The notes beneath the pieces are model-generated. The model was given only the letters and a program-made list of their open reading frames with translations, ran no database searches and had not been told where the DNA came from. Of a stretch of 64,000 nucleotides of DNA, positions 15,958 through 39,739 are shown piece by piece. The translations under genes were made by a program, and so were the position numbers. The DNA comes from Vicinamibacterales bacterium (GTDB lineage Bacteria; Acidobacteriota; Vicinamibacteria; Vicinamibacterales; JAMQPK01). The stretch's first letter is position 1; each line of letters opens with the position of its first letter. The stretch spans positions 68,113 through 132,112 of the forward strand of contig CAWGDY010000013.1 in assembly GCA_963821395.1 (NCBI GenBank). The letters run 5' to 3'.

Positions 15958-17007
15958 ATGCTTTTCGCTGTGGCCCTGTGCACAGCTCTCGGGATCGTCA
16001 CGTTCTACGCTCAGGCGGGCGGGCAGAAACCGGCCTCGGCCGACCCGTACGCGAACAACGCCGACGCGGGCAAGACCAAGTTCCCGCTGGCGGCGCCGGC
16101 AGGCACGAACAGCGGAGCCAAGGAGAAACCGCTGCCCGGTGCGGTCAATACCGGGTCGATCGATCCGGCGACCTGGAAATACGGCCCGAACACCGCAGCG
16201 CCAGCGGGCTCGAAGCTGTGGAACCCGGTCAAGGCGAAGCTGAAGGCGGGCGGCCGCGTGACCGGCGGCACCGTGTTCAGTTCCACCGATCCGCTCACCT
16301 ATTGCGCGATGGCGAATGCCGGATACGACTTCATCTGGACCGAGCAGCAGCACAACGATCGCGACTGGGGACAGGCCGCGCGCATGTGGCGCACCTGCCC
16401 GCACGCCAAGGCGGTGCCCGGCGCGCGCGTCGCGTACGCCGACGAGCGCGAGATTCAGCACGCAACAGATGCGGGCGCGCTGGTCATCGTCGTCCCGACG
16501 ATCGATACGGTGCCGGAAGCGATCGCCGCGCGCGACTGGACGTACTTCCCGCCGCTCGGCAGGCGCAGCCAGGGAGGCGGACAGGGGTTCGATGCGTCCA
16601 TGTGGGGTGGCGTGCCGGGCGGCTACCGGCAGACCGTCAACGACAACATCGTGCTCGTCCTGATGATTGAAACGCTCGAAGGCGTCAAGAACGCGCACGA
16701 GATCGCCAAGATCCCGGGCGTCGACGCGGTCTTCGCCGCGAGCGGCGACCTGGGCAACTTCTCGGGCTACGCCCAGGGCACGCCCGACTACGAACGTCTG
16801 ATCAACGTGGTGCACGACGCGGCGCTCGCCGCCGGCAAGCGGCTCTGCGGTCCCTGGGCCTGGCGCGATCGTCCCGACTTCACCTGCTTCCAGAACGCAA
16901 GTGAGACGGCCGCCATCGCAAACGGCGTCACCGCCGAGCTGGGGAAAGACAAGGACACGCAGGGCAAGGTCGAGGTGGGGCCGTACGCGGCGCACCCGGG
17001 GAAGTAA
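15958..17007 (+). CDS. HpcH/HpaI-family aldolase with Sec signal peptide and a low-complexity linker of about 80 aa
   Basis: MLFAVALCTALGIVTFYAQAGGQ signal, then a P/A/G/N-rich linker. The aldolase core is LKAGGRVTGGTVFSSTDPLTYCAMANAGYDFIWTEQQH...VLVLMIETLEGVKNAHEIAKIPGVDAVFAASGDL. Confidence 0.75.
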   Translation: MLFAVALCTALGIVTFYAQAGGQKPASADPYANNADAGKTKFPLAAPAGTNSGAKEKPLPGAVNTGSIDPATWKYGPNTAAPAGSKLWNPVKAKLKAGGRVTGGTVFSSTDPLTYCAMANAGYDFIWTEQQHNDRDWGQAARMWRTCPHAKAVPGARVAYADEREIQHATDAGALVIVVPTIDTVPEAIAARDWTYFPPLGRRSQGGGQGFDASMWGGVPGGYRQTVNDNIVLVLMIETLEGVKNAHEIAKIPGVDAVFAASGDLGNFSGYAQGTPDYERLINVVHDAALAAGKRLCGPWAWRDRPDFTCFQNASETAAIANGVTAELGKDKDTQGKVEVGPYAAHPGK

Positions 17008-21530: not shown

Positions 21531-22445
21531 TCAGGCTGGAATTTTCAGCAGCCTTGTGCTGTTTTCCCACGTGATCTTCCTGAACACGTTCGGTGAAGCC
21601 AGTTTCTTCAGCGCGGTCAGCGTGGCGCGCGCGACGCACCGGCCCGTGGTTCCGCCACGGCCGTCGGGGCACGGGCAATCGCTGCCAAACATCAGCTTGT
21701 TCTGATGCCGTTCGAGAAACCTGGCGGCAAACTCGGGATCGCGTGTGAGGAAGTTGTTGGCCGAGTTCGCCGACATGTCGGCATACAGGTTTGCGTAATC
21801 GCCGAGAAACTTATCGGTCACACCGCCTGGTTTGATCGGCCCCTTCGGATAGGACGTGTCCTCGGCATAGTCGGCACTGACGTTCGCCCAGAACGCATCG
21901 GCATGACCGATGAACGTCGTCCTGGGAAACGCCTTGAGCATGGCGTCGAATTTTTTCAGCCCGGTGTTGAACACACCCTGGCTTCCAGGCTGGGTGACTT
22001 CCTGGAAGTGAATCGTGATGGGAACATTCAGCTCGGCGGCAAGCGCATAGAGGCGCTGCATCTCGGGCCCCGCGGCCTCGACCTGCGACTTGATTTCTCC
22101 GAAGCCGATCGCGCCGTTCTGCACGGCCTTCCGCAACTGGTCAATCGCGTCGGGTTGCCTGACGTCGATGCTCGCGAATCGCACGAACCGGCCGGGATAG
22201 GCAGACACCACGGCTTTCGCACGATCCTCGGCGTTCACGTTCGTCAGCAGCACGGCCTTCGTGACGCCAGCCCCATCGAGGTGTATCGCGTTTCCATCCG
22301 CGGTCTGCCTGAGATGCAAGTGGATATCCAGCACGGGCCCGCCCCACTCGTTTGCAGCGGGAGTCTGGGCAGAGAGCCGCGAGGCCGCGGCGACGGCAAG
22401 CGCCGATTGCAGGAATTCCCGCCTGTTTTTCAGATGGCTTTTCAT
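21531..22445 (-). CDS. Amidohydrolase-2 family metal hydrolase (TIM barrel) with Tat signal
   Basis: MKSHLKNRREFLQSALAVAAASRLSAQ is a twin-arginine signal. Also VLDIHLHL metal motif, FIGHADAFW and MFGSDCPC. Confidence 0.75.
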   Translation of the reverse strand: MKSHLKNRREFLQSALAVAAASRLSAQTPAANEWGGPVLDIHLHLRQTADGNAIHLDGAGVTKAVLLTNVNAEDRAKAVVSAYPGRFVRFASIDVRQPDAIDQLRKAVQNGAIGFGEIKSQVEAAGPEMQRLYALAAELNVPITIHFQEVTQPGSQGVFNTGLKKFDAMLKAFPRTTFIGHADAFWANVSADYAEDTSYPKGPIKPGGVTDKFLGDYANLYADMSANSANNFLTRDPEFAARFLERHQNKLMFGSDCPCPDGRGGTTGRCVARATLTALKKLASPNVFRKITWENSTRLLKIPA

Positions 22446-34953: not shown

Positions 34954-35421
34954 TCAGATCGCCGCGATGCAGTCGATCTCGACGAGCGAATCGCCAGGAA
35001 TACCACCGGCCGCGGCGATCGTCGTCCGCACGGGCGGCTCGAGGCCGAAACGCCCCTGGAACGCGCCGTTCATTCCCGCGTAGTCCTTCAGGTCGTTCAG
35101 GTACACGTTCACCTTCAGCACCTTGTCCATCGACGAGCCGACTGACAGGAGACGCTTCTCGATTTCGTCGAGCACGTGCTTGGTGTGCTCGCCGATGTCT
35201 CCCTTGAAGTGCGCCCCGATGCCGGCGATGAACACCATGTTGCCGAACGTGACGATGCCGCTGAAGAGGGGCGGCTTCTCGGGTGGCTTGCCATTGGGCC
35301 AGATCACGCGCTTCACGGGCTTTTGCCCGGCAGTCGTCTGCGCGCCGGCAGCCGCGGGAAGCGCAACGGCGGCGGCAACGGCCGTGGTTTGGGTGAGGAA
35401 CTTGCGGCGGTTCGATGTCAT
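34954..35421 (-). CDS. RidA/YjgF/L-PSP family protein with Tat signal
   Basis: MTSNRRKFLTQTTAVAAAVALPAAAGAQ is a Tat signal. The core is VFIAGIGAH...HVLDEIEKRLLSVGSSMDKVLKVNVYLNDLKDYAGMNGAF...PVRTTI...LVEIDCIA. Confidence 0.8.
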   Translation of the reverse strand: MTSNRRKFLTQTTAVAAAVALPAAAGAQTTAGQKPVKRVIWPNGKPPEKPPLFSGIVTFGNMVFIAGIGAHFKGDIGEHTKHVLDEIEKRLLSVGSSMDKVLKVNVYLNDLKDYAGMNGAFQGRFGLEPPVRTTIAAAGGIPGDSLVEIDCIAAI

Positions 35422-35434
35422 AGGGATCCTCCTG

Positions 35435-35473
35435 GCGCGGCTAAAGCCGCGCCCTACGCTAAGCCGCGCTACG
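35435..35473. repeat. REP-like hairpin + tail, copy R8
   Basis: GCGCGGC-TAAA-GCCGCGC-CCTACG, followed by CTAAGCCGCGCTACG. It lies between an AGGAGG SD-proximal region and the RidA start. Confidence 0.7.
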
Positions 35474-35518
35474 TGTTGTCGCCGTTACCGTGTTGTCGCC
35501 CTACGGTGTTGTCGCCGT
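35469..35518. repeat. 16-17 nt tandem repeat x3 (core GTGTTGTCGCC)
   Basis: The core occurs at 35473-35483, 35490-35500 and 35506-35516, each preceded by TAC(N). The third copy encodes the C-terminus and stop of the amidohydrolase (LTATTP*). Confidence 0.8.
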
Positions 35519-36721
35519 GAGACCGTTCAAATCGTAAACAACCTTGCCGTCGCGCAACGTGAGCTCGCACGTGATTCGTTGTGTGCCATCGAGGCGCACG
35601 CCAGGACCGTCAACGTACCCGAAGTGGCCTTTCTCCACGCGCCACACGGCCACGTCCGCATTCGCGCCGGGCGAGAGGTGTCCGAGCGCTTCCTGGCGGA
35701 TCGTACGAGCGGCATTCCACGTCGTCCGGCGGATCACCTCGTCCAGCGAAAGGCCGAGCGAGAGAAATTTGCTCATCACGTTGGGCATGTCCTTCATCCC
35801 GCCGCTCAGGCTCGCCATGTGAATGTCGGTCGAAATCGTATCGGGCAGAAATCCTTCCTTGATCGCAGGCACCGCGATGCGCCACGCAAAGCTGGTGGCT
35901 CCGTGGCCGACGTCGAAGAGGACACCCCGCTTCCTGGCTTCCCAGAGCGCCGGATTCACCTTGCCTGACGGATCCTGTTCTCCGCGAATCCCGGAGTACA
36001 CGTGCGTGTAGATGTCGTTCGGCCGCAGCTTCACCATCACCAGTTCCGACAGCGGCCGCTCGTTCCGACGCGCGCCGAAGTCCACCATCACCGGCAGATT
36101 GGCGAGCGTGCCCGCCTCGACCGCCCGCTCGACCGGCGCCCATTCGGGTCCTGAATAGTGCGCCGTCTTGATGCCGACGACGAGCCCGGGGTAGCGGCGC
36201 GCCATGTCCGCTGTCGGCTGCGCCGCCATGTCGTTCAGATCCTGCTCGAACTTCCCGCCGCGCATCCCGTGGCCGACGATGTTCAGAAACGCGAGGACAC
36301 GAGTCGACGCGCGATCGATGATGCGCTGCTTGAAGTCTTCGAAGTTGCGCCACCCGGAGCTGCCCGTGTCGACAACCGTCGTCACGCCCGAGCGGGGCGC
36401 CACGAGGTCGGGATAGACGCTGTTGTCGCCGGCATACGAACGCGCCTCGCCGGTACCGGCATAGACGTGCGTGTGAATGTCCACGATCCCTGGACTGACG
36501 AAGAGCCCACTGACGTCGACCGTTTTGACGGCATCAGCGGGATCGATCTTCGGCGCGATCGCGGCGACCTTCCCTGCCGATATAGCAATGTCTCGAACTG
36601 CACTCACGCCATTGCGGGGATCTATCAGATGACCGCCCTGCAGCAGTACGTCGTACTTCTGCGCTGCGGTGGGCGCGTCAACAACAAGGACGAGCAGCAG
36701 CGCCAGCGATATCCGATTCAC
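35501..36721 (-). CDS. Amidohydrolase (dihydroorotase/deacetylase-like metallo-hydrolase) with Sec signal
   Basis: MNRISLALLLVLVVDAPTAAQ signal. YDVLLQGGHLIDP...VDVSGLFVSPGIVDIHTHVY (HxH metal motif) and FDVGHG. Confidence 0.8.
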   Translation of the reverse strand: MNRISLALLLVLVVDAPTAAQKYDVLLQGGHLIDPRNGVSAVRDIAISAGKVAAIAPKIDPADAVKTVDVSGLFVSPGIVDIHTHVYAGTGEARSYAGDNSVYPDLVAPRSGVTTVVDTGSSGWRNFEDFKQRIIDRASTRVLAFLNIVGHGMRGGKFEQDLNDMAAQPTADMARRYPGLVVGIKTAHYSGPEWAPVERAVEAGTLANLPVMVDFGARRNERPLSELVMVKLRPNDIYTHVYSGIRGEQDPSGKVNPALWEARKRGVLFDVGHGATSFAWRIAVPAIKEGFLPDTISTDIHMASLSGGMKDMPNVMSKFLSLGLSLDEVIRRTTWNAARTIRQEALGHLSPGANADVAVWRVEKGHFGYVDGPGVRLDGTQRITCELTLRDGKVVYDLNGLTATTP

Positions 36722-37599
36722 CTGGCGATCGCCTTCTTGATGGCGTCGACCGTCACCTTCGAGCGGAATTCGACAATCTTTCTCGCAAGCTCGATATTTT
36801 TCGAGCGATTCGAGACATCCGCGCCGTTGATCGTCGCCTTACCGATTTTTACGCGTTCGTCGAAGCGAACCGCACTTGCGTCGTCGATGAACATGTTGAG
36901 CGTGATGATCGGATCATCATGCAGGTCGTCACCCCTCGGTTTGCTCACCAGTCCCTCGCCGGCCATGTACTTCTCAACACCGGCATAGTCGTAGTATTCA
37001 GGAATGTGGGCAACTGACCCGCGACCCCATTCAGCGCCGAGCTTATCGGCAACAGCCTTCTGGCCAGCCTGGTTGCCGCCGCTATCGCCGATGAAAATGA
37101 TGCTCTTGAACCCATGCGCCTGCAGACTCCGTGCGATGTCTTCAAGAATGGCGCGGTAGGTACCTTCCCTCATTGTGATCGTGCCGGGGCTCCCCATATG
37201 GCCGCTCTTGGTCGTGTAGTCGCCTTCTGGCACGAACTTCACGATCGGCGCGCAAAGTGCGTCGCCCAGCTTACGTGCAATCGCGTCGCAATTCGCGTGA
37301 AGCACGTAGTTATGCTTGCCCAGCGCGAGCCACGGGCCGTTCGGTTCGATGCCGCCAGTCGGGACAATCACCGTTCGCTTTCCTGCGCTCAACGCGTCTC
37401 GCACATCCATCCACGTCATCTCTTCGATCCAGACCGTGTCCGGAGTGCGGATCGGATTCGGCGTGTCGACGCAGTTGTACACGTTGTCGCGGCAGTCGGC
37501 GCCGCCCCTCGAGCGTGGGTCGGGAGTGCGCTGCCCTTGACCGGAAGCGACGAGCGTTGGCAACGCAAGCGCGATCAACAGCGAGACGACGTTTTTCAT
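36718..37599 (-). CDS. Creatininase-family (creatinine amidohydrolase-like) protein with Sec signal and divergent metal motif
   Basis: MKNVVSLLIALALPTLVASGQ signal. VIVPTGGIEPNGPWLALG...SPGTITMREGTYRAILEDIARSLQAHGFKSIIFIGDSGGN follows the creatininase layout, but the usual E-x-H-G-x-H-L-P string reads IEPNGPWLA. An AAGGAG SD precedes the ATG at 37599. Confidence 0.65.
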   Translation of the reverse strand: MKNVVSLLIALALPTLVASGQGQRTPDPRSRGGADCRDNVYNCVDTPNPIRTPDTVWIEEMTWMDVRDALSAGKRTVIVPTGGIEPNGPWLALGKHNYVLHANCDAIARKLGDALCAPIVKFVPEGDYTTKSGHMGSPGTITMREGTYRAILEDIARSLQAHGFKSIIFIGDSGGNQAGQKAVADKLGAEWGRGSVAHIPEYYDYAGVEKYMAGEGLVSKPRGDDLHDDPIITLNMFIDDASAVRFDERVKIGKATINGADVSNRSKNIELARKIVEFRSKVTVDAIKKAIAR

Positions 37600-37612
37600 C
37601 GCATCTCCTTGG

Positions 37613-37639
37613 GTCCGGCTAAAGCCGGACACTACGTAC
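37613..37639. repeat. REP-like hairpin + tail, copy R9
   Basis: GTCCGGC-TAAA-GCCGGAC-ACTACGTAC, 14 nt upstream of the creatininase-like start on the coding strand. Confidence 0.75.
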
Positions 37640-37724
37640 TTCACGGAGATCTCTATCCGTTCTTCCTTCTTCCTTTTTCCTTCCTTTTTCCTTACCTGCA
37701 ACGAGTTTCCTTACCTGCGACGAG
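37640..37724. repeat. Polypyrimidine (plus strand) tract F plus an 18-nt tandem duplication spanning the SelA-like stop codon
   Basis: TTCTTCCTTCTTCCTTTTTCCTTCCTTTTTCC, followed by TTCCTTACCTGCAACGAG (37688-37705) and TTCCTTACCTGCGACGAG (37707-37724). The second copy encodes the last residues and stop of the SelA-like gene. Confidence 0.8.
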
Positions 37725-39306
37725 CCGTCCACTTCGCGCCCAGATACTCGCCCATGTCGAGATCCCCCGACATCTCACTCCCTGAAACCTTCCCCGTGAA
37801 CGTGAACGACAGCGCGTCTCCGGTCTGACCGCCGTAGTTGCTGCGAAGGCTGACGTCGCTTCCGTTGATCGTCCCGCTCAGATCGCGGGCCACGAAGTCG
37901 CCCTGATGCGTGCCGTCAACCTCGTTACCCTTCTGCCTCAGGTGCAACGTGTGCGTGGACGAACCGGCTGCGTACTCGATGCGGACGTCCCAGCGGCCGG
38001 TCAAATCGGCTGCCGGCGCTCGCGTCTCGGCGGCGGGCTCGCGAAGCGTCCGCGACGTCAGGACGGCATGAAGCCGATCGGCGATGACGGTTTCATCACC
38101 CGGCGACATCATGTACGGCGTCACGTTGACGCCCGTCTCGACGGGCGGGCCCGGCCGGCGTCCCGGCGTGAGATAGATTCTCGGCTCCGTTTCGAAGAGC
38201 GCACGCGCGACGGTCTCACCGGAAAACCCGAAGCGCTGAGGATCCCACCAGATGCGCAGCGAAGGCGTGCGATTGGACAGCCCGGAGGGTTCGGTCACAT
38301 TGGTCGTCACGCCGGAAACCGCCGACACGCGGCGCGAGATGTGATCGAGCCACGACGTCCAGCTCTTCCACTCGGCATCATGATCGCGCTTGACCCACGC
38401 CTCGACGGCCGCCAGCATCCCCATGGCTTCTTCCTTCCCGACTTTCAGCGCGCGGCCGGGCCCATGATGCGGCGCGCTGTGCACCCACGCCGCACGCACC
38501 AGATCCTTTCGGCCGAGCAGCAGCCCTGCGGTCTGCGGTCCACGCAGGCATTTGCCTCCGCTATAGGTAACCAGCGTGGCGCCGTTCTGCAGGTGGACGT
38601 TCGGGATCGTGAGAATCTCGGCGGCGGCGTCCACGAGAATCGGCACACCCCTCGGATTGGCCACCTGCGCAATCGCCTTCGTGTGGAGCACGCTCTGGTC
38701 TGCGCTCGTGCCGGCCAGCACGTAGATCATCGCGGTGCGCGGACCGAGCGCGGCCTGCAGCTCGTCGACCGAGCTCACTTCGATGATGCGCGTCCCGACC
38801 GCGCGGACGGCCGCGTCGTACACATTGCGCGAGTGCTTCGGGATGATGACCTCGTCTTTGGCGAAGCCGCTGAGGTTCGGGAGGCGGACCTGCAGATCGG
38901 GATTGCCGCCGGTCAAACACGCGGCGGTCGCGTGCGTGATCGCCGCGGAACAGCCCGCCGTCACAAGACCCCATTCGGCGCCGGTCAACGTGGCCAGGCG
39001 AGCGCCGACCGACTCGGCGAGCTCATCGAGGTGCACGTAGTGGCGCGACGCGGCGTCCATCGCGGCGCGGACTTCGGGCAGCATCAGCGAGCCGCTGATG
39101 ATGGTGAACGTACCGCGTGCGTTGATGACAGGCTTGACGCCGATCGATCGGTACACATCGGCGCCCGTGCGCGCCGTGTTCTGTGCAGCCTCGACCGGCG
39201 CCACGACCAGTGGCGTCTCGATTCCGGCGAGCGTCGACAGGCTCAACACCGCCGCGACGTCGCGTCCTCCGCGCAGCAGATCGCGGCGGCTGAAAGGAGC
39301 AGACAT
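37711..39306 (-). CDS. SelA/DgaE-like PLP-dependent enzyme with Tat signal and an extra C-terminal beta-rich domain
   Basis: MSAPFSRRDLLRGGRDVAAVLSLSTLAG is a Tat signal. INARGTFTIISGSLMLPEVRAAM...TAGCSAAI...LVTYSGGKCLRGPQTAGLLLGRKDL carries the Lys of the SGxK PLP site, as in the L-seryl-tRNA(Sec) selenium transferase / D-glucosaminate-6-P ammonia-lyase fold. The last roughly 130 aa form a separate domain. Confidence 0.7.
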   Translation of the reverse strand: MSAPFSRRDLLRGGRDVAAVLSLSTLAGIETPLVVAPVEAAQNTARTGADVYRSIGVKPVINARGTFTIISGSLMLPEVRAAMDAASRHYVHLDELAESVGARLATLTGAEWGLVTAGCSAAITHATAACLTGGNPDLQVRLPNLSGFAKDEVIIPKHSRNVYDAAVRAVGTRIIEVSSVDELQAALGPRTAMIYVLAGTSADQSVLHTKAIAQVANPRGVPILVDAAAEILTIPNVHLQNGATLVTYSGGKCLRGPQTAGLLLGRKDLVRAAWVHSAPHHGPGRALKVGKEEAMGMLAAVEAWVKRDHDAEWKSWTSWLDHISRRVSAVSGVTTNVTEPSGLSNRTPSLRIWWDPQRFGFSGETVARALFETEPRIYLTPGRRPGPPVETGVNVTPYMMSPGDETVIADRLHAVLTSRTLREPAAETRAPAADLTGRWDVRIEYAAGSSTHTLHLRQKGNEVDGTHQGDFVARDLSGTINGSDVSLRSNYGGQTGDALSFTFTGKVSGSEMSGDLDMGEYLGAKWTARRR

Positions 39307-39352: not shown

Positions 39353-39739
39353 TTACGTACTGACGCTCGGCGGTGCGAACAGTCGCGCGCCTGCATCGGA
39401 CAACATGACCCACAGCCCGTACACGCCGAGGATCGTTCCGAAAGGAATGTTCATCAGATTGAGCGCCGACAGCACGATCGTCAGAATGCGCGCCCATGGC
39501 CGGAATTTGAGCAAGCCGACCCCCGCAACGATGCCGGGCAGTGAGAGGATCAAGATAAACATGCCGAGCGCCGCGCCTGTCAGGCCGAGGACAGGCAGCG
39601 CGAGCCATGCATCGGGATCGGAGGCAGCGCCCGCCGCCCCGATGACGCTGAGAAGTGCCATCAGACCAAGCCCGGTCAAGGTGCCGAGCGCGCCAAAGAC
39701 GATGTACAGGACCGCGAGGACCTTCACGTGGGTATCCAT
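39353..39739 (-). CDS. Integral membrane protein (4 predicted helices), hypothetical
   Basis: MDTHVKVLAVLYIVFGALGTLTGLGLMALLSVIGAAG...ILILSLPGIVAGVGLLKFRPWARILTIVLSALNLMNIPFGTILGVYGLWVM. Confidence 0.5.
   Translation of the reverse strand: MDTHVKVLAVLYIVFGALGTLTGLGLMALLSVIGAAGAASDPDAWLALPVLGLTGAALGMFILILSLPGIVAGVGLLKFRPWARILTIVLSALNLMNIPFGTILGVYGLWVMLSDAGARLFAPPSVST

Follow-up and report, generated by a model that had tools for sequence, protein, structure and literature searches.

The use of oxidised chitin by Pseudoalteromonas prydzensis ACAM 620 involves the Ong cluster, which encodes the deacetylase OngB, the PLP-dependent deaminase OngC and the RidA protein OngD, the last of which is essential in this pathway; a cytoplasmic location is predicted for all of these enzymes (PMC9537276, PMC12017989). 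In DgaE, Arg-226 binds the alpha-carboxylate of the substrate, while His-163, strictly conserved in DGLs, serves as the C3 proton donor, and the H163A variant was shown to release the enamine. Outside the cytoplasm, a periplasmic L-amino-acid oxidase (LAAO) with a RidA subunit has been described in Chlamydomonas, and clusters combining Tat-LAAO and RidA are also known. PvdN is a Tat-exported PLP enzyme, and such enzymes can act as tailoring enzymes.

The operon analysed here, located in a 64,000 nt window of the genome of a soil acidobacterium (Vicinamibacterales), resembles the Ong cluster in its presumed logic, i.e. a single operon in which a metal amidohydrolase would deacylate, a PLP enzyme would deaminate an unphosphorylated substrate to a 2-keto-3-deoxy acid, and RidA would be required. 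However, OngB is D-aminoacylase-like and OngC belongs to fold type III, whereas the corresponding enzymes of the operon are a COG3964 amidohydrolase and a SelA-like fold-type-I enzyme. The deacetylase and deaminase are therefore non-orthologous between the two systems, and RidA alone is of the same family. In addition, a creatininase-fold member and a beta-barrel tail on the PLP enzyme are present only in the operon described here. With the LAAO-RidA systems and PvdN, the operon appears to share the export of a folded, cofactor-bearing enzyme and the placement of RidA outside the cytoplasm beside an imine-forming enzyme, although the enzyme families and reactions are different.

All four open reading frames of the minus-strand cluster proposed in a first-pass annotation were recovered, encoding (in order of transcription) a DgaE/SelA-like fold-type-I PLP enzyme of 531 aa (37711..39306), which consists of a predicted Tat leader, a catalytic core and a C-terminal beta-barrel domain; a creatininase-fold protein of 293 aa (36718..37599) with a non-canonical metal site; an amidohydrolase/deacetylase-family metallohydrolase of COG3964 (35501..36721; 406 aa, GTG start); and a RidA-type protein of 155 aa (34954..35421). 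Shine-Dalgarno sequences (AAGGAGG, AAGGAG or AGGAGG) were located 5-7 nt upstream of each chosen start, and the GTG start of the amidohydrolase gene overlaps the stop codon of the creatininase-like gene as GTGA. The PLP and creatininase-like genes are separated by a 111 nt spacer (37600..37710, minus strand) containing a polypurine tract and a hairpin. The operon may have a fifth member in a minus-strand gene for a 128 aa membrane protein (39353..39739), which lies 46 nt upstream of the PLP gene; it is kept at this position in three close relatives only, and its product had no match in Pfam or NCBIfam. The glnN gene is located 2 kb upstream, and this synteny is kept in close relatives.

Each of the four products carries a predicted export leader, in agreement with the annotation, and these leaders are conserved across two phyla (Acidobacteriota and Actinomycetota). 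The leader of the PLP enzyme (39184..39306, minus strand; residues 1 to ~41) comprises S-R-R-D-L-L-R, a mildly hydrophobic stretch and A-P-V-E-A-A-Q; it was modelled with a pLDDT below 50 (AlphaFold2) and represents an N-terminal extension relative to DgaE, residue 4 of which aligns with residue 50 here. R7 and R8 were invariant in the alignment, and an RR-x-hydrophobic-hydrophobic pattern was found in 75 of the 76 orthologues with a complete N-terminus. The RidA leader (N-R-R-K-F-L), in which the twin arginine is invariant among 40 of 40 orthologues, reached the cut-off of the Tat-signal model TIGR01409 (17.3 bits against 16.7), while the PLP leader had no match to this model. Both leaders combine a twin arginine with a subsequent N-terminal hydrophobic stretch, as expected of putative Tat substrates. 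Hydrophobic, Sec-type leaders were predicted ahead of the conserved core in all 43 amidohydrolase orthologues and in all 24 relatives of the creatininase-like protein. All four proteins are thus predicted from their sequences to be exported, the PLP enzyme and RidA via Tat and the two hydrolases via a Sec-type route. It is extremely improbable that the leaders are start-codon artefacts and the enzymes cytoplasmic: two genes do have longer upstream open reading frame extensions, but the chosen starts are backed by their Shine-Dalgarno sites and by the lengths of homologues (PLP enzyme, 528-541 aa; creatininase-like protein, ~295-320 aa), conservation of the leaders at the protein level extends over both phyla with RR invariant, the leaders end where cytoplasmic homologues begin, and the creatininase-like family has four conserved cysteines.

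DgaE (PDB 7lc0) was the best match of the PLP enzyme in both sequence (E 2e-35, ~28% identity) and fold, and homologues of similar length numbered more than 7900. Foldseek matched the enzyme to 7lc0 and to Cap15 (8t7j) with target TM values of 0.84-0.87 (0.84 for 7lc0), and the modelled structure is consistent with a SelA-like fold of fold type I that includes a PLP lysine. The predicted PLP-binding residue, K252 (codon 38551..38553, minus strand; motif Y-S-G-G-K), was invariant in 32 sequences and aligned with the S-G-A-K lysine of DgaE, while R266 is the kept counterpart of the carboxylate-binding Arg-226. Scores against TIGR01437 (the DgaE family; 163.3 bits, cut-off 385.3) and NF047797 (162.1 bits, cut-off 600) fell far below the cut-offs, and the substrate identity of DgaE can therefore not be transferred. 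In the alignment, G199 and T200 occupy the positions of DgaE His-162 and His-163, and histidine was found at neither of them in any of the 32 orthologues; as the proton donor is missing, the enzyme probably releases the enamine. Within the 6-phosphate-binding cluster of DgaE (Arg-301, 332 and 346), Arg-301 aligns with S349 and the other two positions are outside the reliable alignment. Outside the cytoplasm, the substrate is unlikely to be phosphorylated.

Beyond its leader, the PLP enzyme differs from DgaE by a C-terminal domain (37714..38007, minus strand), the existence of which had been recognised in the annotation, although its size is ~100 aa (residues ~434-531) rather than ~130 aa. This domain was modelled as eight antiparallel beta-strands (residues 437-530, pLDDT mostly 82-94; AlphaFold2). 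A PDB sequence search with it returned no match, whereas a search of protein representatives gave 868 matches, among which were stand-alone copies as well as arrays with five and seven tandem copies, the latter with a weak signal to Calycin_like (PF13944).

The structural similarity to Cap15, which performs oxygen-dependent chemistry and is as close to the PLP enzyme as DgaE, raises the question of whether the latter is a Cap15-like oxidase/decarboxylase or, given the export of PvdN, a PvdN-like tailoring enzyme of a secreted metabolite instead of a catabolic ammonia-lyase. This appears very unlikely, since NRPS, siderophore and nucleoside-antibiotic genes were absent from the loci inspected, catabolic sugar-acid neighbours recur (see below), and the tight linkage to RidA suits an eliminase that releases an enamine.

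The amidohydrolase scored 424.8 bits against NF006689 (COG3964; cut-off 371), and its PDB relatives were 8wzy, 8je0, 2ogj and 2ics. With these proteins (8WZY, 8JE0, Atu3266 [2OGJ] and EF_0837 [2ICS]) it shares the HxH, carbamylated-Lys position, His and Asp ligands, and H83, H85, K185, H240, H273 and D299 were invariant among 44 orthologues. It deviates from them in its predicted Sec-type leader and in the beta-5 His position, which is occupied by Asp214 in all 44 orthologues. We know of no physiological substrates for Atu3266 or the COG3964 family. RidA was assigned to PF01042 (65.1 bits, cut-off 27.3), with a score under the cut-off of TIGR00004 (52.5 bits against 106). Its residues R5, R6, F8, R132 and E148 were invariant among 40 orthologues from two phyla, R132 (in P-V-R-T-T) being the equivalent of the active-site Arg105 of Escherichia coli.

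Comparison of gene neighbourhoods did not bear out the quartet as a co-conserved unit. The conserved unit is the PLP enzyme with RidA, usually together with the amidohydrolase: of 80 species-level loci, 38 contain all three genes together (those of Streptomyces, Nonomuraea and Jiangella among them), the PLP gene is accompanied by the amidohydrolase gene in seven and by the RidA gene in five, and it stands alone in 28. The creatininase-like gene, conversely, was limited to 3 of 81 loci and corresponds to a 1.07 kb indel, which has the 111 nt spacer at its upstream edge and is absent from the closest relative (L004, 95% nucleotide identity), where positions 37728-36655 have no counterpart and the flanks are 92-95% identical.

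The product of this gene matched PF02633 (96.8 bits, cut-off 31.3) over positions 1-133 of the 238 in the profile and aligned with creatininases in Foldseek (TM 0.55-0.65), placing it in this family and fold, while its scores fell under the equivalog cut-offs for creatininase (44.5 against 235), MftE (41.9 against 172) and IolN (41.5 against 245). With family members such as creatininase (1J2T/1Q3K), MftE and IolN it shares the fold and the N-terminal profile half, and it differs from them by a C-terminal half outside the Pfam match, predicted export and four cysteines that are invariant in 14 close relatives (at least 90% conserved when the genome's own paralogues are added). The unusual IEPNGPWLA motif noted in the annotation is indeed present, with E85 and N87 invariant in the family. 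Canonical ligands are the Glu and His of E-x-H, an Asp, the His of G-H-G-G-N and the Glu of H-A-G-x-x-E; upon comparison with a canonical-type paralogue of the same genome (contig C15), four of these five were found to be invariantly replaced, the positions being N87, H96, S173 (adjacent to D172) and I232, and E85 alone is kept.

In two further genomes (L006 and L034), the creatininase-like gene lies between the PLP and RidA genes, exactly where the amidohydrolase gene is missing. Together with the indel, this replacement suggests interchangeable front-end hydrolases preceding a constant deaminating core. The gene may instead be a passenger between the PLP and amidohydrolase genes with no role in the pathway, in keeping with its rarity, its absence from the closest relative and the occurrence of family members elsewhere, which are mostly stand-alone, in unrelated contexts and multi-copy. 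We consider this less likely than not, though by no means remote, as the gene takes the site of the missing amidohydrolase in the PLP-RidA interval of L006 and L034, is translationally coupled to the amidohydrolase gene by the GTGA overlap, and keeps a Shine-Dalgarno site of its own, together with a conserved leader and the family-invariant residues.

Recurrent neighbours of the conserved unit include exported RraA-like aldolases, Tat-signal sugar-acid dehydratases, a KDG-kinase-like gene and a DgoT-like transporter. For example, the three-gene set is accompanied by a Tat-UxuA-like and two exported RraA-like genes in one locus (L011), by a Tat-signal enolase-superfamily dehydratase and an exported RraA-like gene in another (L019), and by Tat-UxuA-like, RraA-like and DgoT-like MFS genes in actinomycete loci, with an additional KdgK-like gene in Nonomuraea. 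No transporter or sugar-acid gene was found beside the operon within the window. The source genome has eda-kdgK and encodes Tat-signal dehydratases, an exported RraA-like protein and more than 40 PQQ dehydrogenases. The proximity of PQQ dehydrogenases and TonB receptors constitutes weak evidence, because both are very numerous in these genomes. The neighbourhoods suggest as substrates N-acylated 2-amino-2-deoxy-aldonic (amino-sugar) acids, which would parallel the cytoplasmic Ong and Dga pathways, or else N-acyl-D-beta-hydroxy amino acids.

Reading export, reaction and substrate from the genes observed, with their leaders, their catalytic residues and their linkage across genomes, we infer that the operon represents an extracytoplasmic deacylation and deamination module, the substrate of which is most likely a 2-amino-2-deoxy-aldonic acid, e.g. 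D-glucosaminate (estimated probability of about 60%). The PLP enzyme (with its cofactor) and RidA would fold in the cytoplasm before passage through Tat, whereas the two hydrolases would leave via Sec. In the periplasm, an N-acyl group would be removed or an amide opened, yielding a free alpha-amino acid with a beta-hydroxyl group; the usual hydrolase would be the COG3964 amidohydrolase, with the creatininase-fold enzyme being an extra here and a substitute in some relatives. The DgaE-like enzyme would then drive PLP-dependent loss of the beta-hydroxyl, probably releasing the enamine, which RidA would hydrolyse (as enamine or imine) to a 2-keto-3-deoxy acid and ammonium. Ammonium and keto acid may be taken up, or the keto acid may be cleaved by exported aldolases. 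The periplasmic hydrolysis and deamination route with an imine-handling partner, as put forward in the annotation, thus fits the leaders, the PLP-RidA linkage, the kept residues and the logic of the Ong pathway, while its lactam substrate is disfavoured by neighbourhoods that favour N-acyl acids. If correct, acyl and amino groups would be removed in the periplasm from amino acids or amino-sugar acids, a process shown so far only inside cells.

The same exported module may, with an appreciably lower probability, act on N-acyl-D-amino acids or free beta-hydroxy D-amino acids (of the D-Ser/D-Thr type) instead of amino-sugar acids; cell-wall or peptide turnover would be their source, and periplasmic deamination for nitrogen scavenging the purpose. 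LPMO_10, GH18 and GH20 were not found in the source genome (94% complete), making self-made oxidised chitin unlikely as a source, and this absence of chitin-degrading genes agrees with D-amino acids, as do the syntenic glnN gene, the precedent of a periplasmic LAAO-RidA complex that scavenges ammonium, and the preference for R-configured acyl esters that a COG3964 member reportedly displayed in the 2013 work of Ornelas. Against this, the partners that recur in the operons of two phyla are enzymes of sugar acids and a DgoT-like transporter rather than genes for amino acids, and the nearest characterised relative uses an amino-sugar acid. Export leaders extend to other genes in the window, as the annotation had also remarked, and were found on an HpcH-type aldolase (15958-17007), a Tat-type hydrolase (21531-22445) and PhoD.

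The window carries four co-directional genes on the minus strand, identified as open reading frames encoding a DgaE/SelA-like pyridoxal phosphate (PLP) enzyme (37711-39306, 531 aa), a creatininase-fold protein (36718-37599, 293 aa), an amidohydrolase (35501-36721, 406 aa, GTG start) and a Rid protein (34954-35421, 155 aa). Three of the four starts are preceded at a distance of 5-7 nt by AAGGAGG, AAGGAG or AGGAGG, while the GTG start of the amidohydrolase gene and the preceding stop codon overlap as GTGA, suggestive of translational coupling to the preceding creatininase-like gene. These Shine-Dalgarno-type sites, the overlap and the lengths of homologues, which match those of the window proteins, bear out the start codons chosen in the first-pass annotation. 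Homologues with organism names assign the source to the Vicinamibacterales (Acidobacteriota). A scan for promoters and terminators returned a score no better than that of shuffled sequence. The highest-scoring models for the PLP enzyme were those of the DgaE family, both below their cut-offs (TIGR01437, 163 versus 385 bits; NF047797, 162 versus 600 bits), and the nearest solved structures were DgaE (7LC0, E 2e-35) and Cap15 (8T7J). The amidohydrolase exceeded the cut-off of the COG3964-type model NF006689 (424.8 versus 371 bits), the Rid protein (RidA) that of PF01042, and the creatininase-like protein that of PF02633, with a match limited to profile positions 1-133 of 238.

Approximately 49 residues of the PLP enzyme precede the point at which its alignment with DgaE starts. 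This leader contains S-R-R-D-L-L-R, in which R7 and R8 are invariant, a stretch of mild hydrophobicity and a site resembling A-x-A. An arginine pair followed by two hydrophobic residues was present in 75 of the 76 PLP orthologues with a complete N-terminus, the pair standing within L/P-R-R-D-V/I/A-F/L in at least ten of them. The Tat-signal model TIGR01409 did not match the PLP leader; the RidA leader (N-R-R-K-F-L) reached the cut-off of this model, and its residues R5, R6 and F8 were invariant among 40 orthologues, including those from Streptomyces. Furthermore, a hydrophobic leader was found before the conserved core in every one of the amidohydrolase orthologues (43) and creatininase-like relatives (24). 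Four cysteines are also retained in the creatininase-like family, without exception in 14 close relatives and at a level of at least 90 % when paralogues from the source genome, G000, were added, which fits an oxidising compartment. The reading frames, starts and conserved leaders confirm the earlier observation of four minus-strand genes with export leaders. Export of the four products is strongly predicted rather than demonstrated, as the PLP leader misses TIGR01409 and the prediction is based on conservation of leader sequences.

The predicted PLP-binding lysine of the SelA-like protein is the invariant K252 (Y-S-G-G-K), aligned with the DgaE lysine; the latter is numbered Lys-217 in PMC9529869 versus chain index K213 in the alignment, for which reason the S-G-x-K motif was used instead. 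R266 is the alignment equivalent of DgaE Arg-226, which has been placed near the alpha-carboxylate (PMC9529869). DgaE residues His-162 and His-163 are aligned with G199 and T200, and histidine was found at these positions in none of 32 orthologues, nor at the His-163 position in the loci checked that carry the PLP gene alone. Since the DgaE H163A variant remains active and yields an enamine instead of an imine (PMC9529869), we infer by analogy that the PLP enzyme described here probably releases an enamine, which would explain the presence of a dedicated RidA. Of the DgaE phosphate-cluster arginines, Arg-301 is aligned with S349 and the remaining two were not placeable in the alignment. R346 (L-S-N-R-T-P; alignment A3) was invariant where RidA and the amidohydrolase are present, with H, N, K or Q at this position in most PLP-alone loci, and may represent a specificity residue.

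In the structure model of the PLP enzyme (pLDDT 80.7), the leader is disordered, the core resembles DgaE, and eight beta-strands lie at 437-530. The corresponding C-terminal tail of ~100 aa is a mobile module, with 868 matches among protein representatives, including stand-alone proteins of ~100-150 aa and tandem arrays of five and seven copies, the latter with sub-threshold Calycin_like matches. The tail profile did not match PDB sequences, and its comparison with the Atlas returned unnamed clusters only, all scoring <0.9.

Regarding the partner proteins, RidA retains the arginine R132 and E148, and the amidohydrolase retains H83, H85, K185, H240, H273 and D299. At the beta-5 His position of 8WZY, 2OGJ and 2ICS, all 44 amidohydrolase orthologues carry an aspartate (Asp214). 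The altered metal-ligand motif previously noted in the creatininase-like protein was substantiated, as E85 is the sole canonical ligand retained, the other ligand positions being occupied by N87, H96, S173 (with D172 adjacent) and I232, all of them invariant. That the replacement residues are so strictly conserved speaks for an altered active site, not for a decayed one. The model of this protein (pLDDT 82.6) aligned with creatininases at TM values of 0.55-0.65. A fourth creatininase-family protein of G000, encoded on contig C15 (37-939), carries a signal peptide and is of the canonical type (E-K-H, G-H-G-G-N and H-A-G-E-N-E).

To assess conservation, one genome per species was scanned. The PLP enzyme had at least 563 relatives in this set, and the gene content of the best 80 loci was examined by tblastn. 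The PLP, amidohydrolase and RidA genes occurred together in 38 of these loci, the PLP and amidohydrolase genes in seven (several on cut contigs), the PLP and RidA genes in five and the PLP gene alone in 28, mostly from Bryobacteraceae and Terriglobia. In Streptomyces, Jiangella and Nonomuraea, the three genes form a unit ordered PLP-RidA-amidohydrolase, and their products keep the leaders. The creatininase-like gene was encountered in only two of the 80 loci (L006 and L034), both without the amidohydrolase gene. Comparison at the DNA level revealed that window positions 37728-36655, encompassing the creatininase-like gene, are missing from the closest relative (L004), the flanks of which are 92-95 % identical, and that locus L005 possesses neither hydrolase gene. 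Across the window and these four loci, zero, one or two hydrolase genes occupy one variable site between constant PLP and constant RidA genes. Approximately 60 nt of the amidohydrolase 3' end is retained in L006 (12514-12580, corresponding to window 35501-35566), suggesting that this gene was lost rather than primarily absent. The locus gene content and the DNA comparison rule out a conserved four-gene unit, and the co-conservation of the quartet that the first-pass annotation set as a check does not hold.

Outside the module, creatininase-like genes mostly stand alone, in unrelated surroundings and frequently as tandem copies. Of a sample of 301 Acidobacteriota genomes, 38 carried the family, at one to six copies each, and G000 encodes two further paralogues with predicted export. 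Tandem gene pairs are frequent (e.g. P0128, P0135 and G168:C28:4594-6435), and some database entries of the family are apparent fused two-copy proteins of ~470 aa.

The neighbourhoods of the module in other genomes point to sugar acids as the probable substrate class. For example, in the Vicinamibacterales locus L011, the three genes are followed by co-directional genes for a Tat-signal UxuA-like protein and two Sec-leader RraA-like aldolase-family proteins; in L019, they are preceded by genes for a Tat-signal sugar-acid dehydratase of the enolase superfamily and an RraA-like protein with predicted export; and in L060, the PLP gene is followed by an exported RraA-like gene. In actinomycete loci, the three genes adjoin a Tat-UxuA-like gene, an RraA-like gene, a GroEL paralogue and a LysR regulator, together with a DgoT-like acid-sugar MFS transporter in Streptomyces (L079; TIGR00893, 285 bits) and a KDG-kinase-like gene in Nonomuraea (L083; NF040938, 208 bits). 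As RraA-like and UxuA-like genes are present in only one or two copies in G000, their linkage is unlikely to be due to chance. PQQ dehydrogenases and TonB receptors were dismissed as informative neighbours owing to their many copies per genome. The GroEL paralogue lies between the module and the Tat-UxuA-like gene in L079 (13705-15345) and L083 (15937-17745).

LPMO_10, GH18 and GH20 were all absent from the G000 assembly (5.69 Mb, 94 % complete), which speaks against a link with chitin, and on this ground self-contained chitin oxidation in the source organism was rejected as unlikely. No transporter or sugar-acid gene was found beside the operon within the window. N-acyl-D-amino acids represent a serious alternative substrate. 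The linked dehydratase-, aldolase-, transporter- and kinase-like genes of the related loci favour sugar acids.

In the oxidised-chitin (Ong) cluster of Pseudoalteromonas prydzensis ACAM 620, N-acetyl-glucosaminate is converted to KDG in the cytoplasm by a deacetylase (OngB), a PLP deaminase (OngC) and an essential RidA (OngD) (PMC9537276, PMC12017989), and Salmonella DgaE performs the corresponding step on the 6-phosphate (PMC9529869). The logic of the window enzymes is alike, although they are non-orthologous and predicted to be exported. LAAO-RidA systems provide a precedent for extracytoplasmic RidA, as does PvdN for a Tat-exported PLP enzyme. The leaders, the PLP-RidA linkage and the catalytic residues are consistent with the previously proposed exported hydrolysis and deamination with an imine-handling partner, the four-gene unit being the part of that proposal that was not upheld. 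In the boldest reading, to which we assign a probability of roughly 0.3, soil Acidobacteriota and actinomycetes may perform ATP-independent extracytoplasmic breakdown of N-acyl amino-sugar acids by means of a constant PLP-lyase and RidA core with swappable hydrolase cassettes, one of them a new subfamily of the creatininase fold whose metal site has been rebuilt, with exported aldolases and dehydratases completing a non-phosphorylative periplasmic route to pyruvate.

New from this window are the creatininase-fold cassette, the evidence that cassettes are swapped, the absence of His-163, and actinomycete loci in which a kinase-like gene and a sugar-acid transporter accompany the module. Deacylase, PLP deaminase and RidA routes such as Ong and Dga are known inside cells only, and the module with predicted export is represented in several hundred species-level genomes at least, and in thousands of metagenome proteins. 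An exported version would shift some of the turnover of amino-sugar acids or D-amino acids, along with ammonium release, to the periplasm or soil solution, with a bearing on nitrogen mineralisation. RidA would gain a clear extracytoplasmic partner, and the short list of PLP enzymes known to be Tat-exported would grow by one. Three unexplored protein features stand out: the calycin-like tail, an amidohydrolase with Asp in place of His, and a creatininase fold lacking the canonical ligands. Carriers include cultured Streptomyces, rendering the module testable.

In G000, an eda gene (KDPG aldolase) is located directly upstream of a KdgK-like kinase gene (C9:37112-38325), making cytoplasmic use of KDG possible. 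Twin-arginine leaders were found on a UxuA-like protein and on two sugar-acid dehydratases of the enolase superfamily (C24:10534-11595, C2:83239-84462 and C43:57356-58417), and a Sec leader on an RraA-like protein (C51:2858-3496), suggesting a wider exported set of sugar-acid enzymes. More than 40 PQQ-dependent dehydrogenase paralogues (e.g. on C42, C14, C29 and C33), three of them in tandem (C42:42728-47436), could act as periplasmic sugar oxidisers; the periplasmic quinoprotein set of this genome is unusually large. Within the window, a 304-aa protein (21531-22445) without an NCBIfam match bears a Tat-type leader (N-R-R-E-F-L), and an HpcH/HpaI-type aldolase (15958-17007) bears a Sec-type leader.
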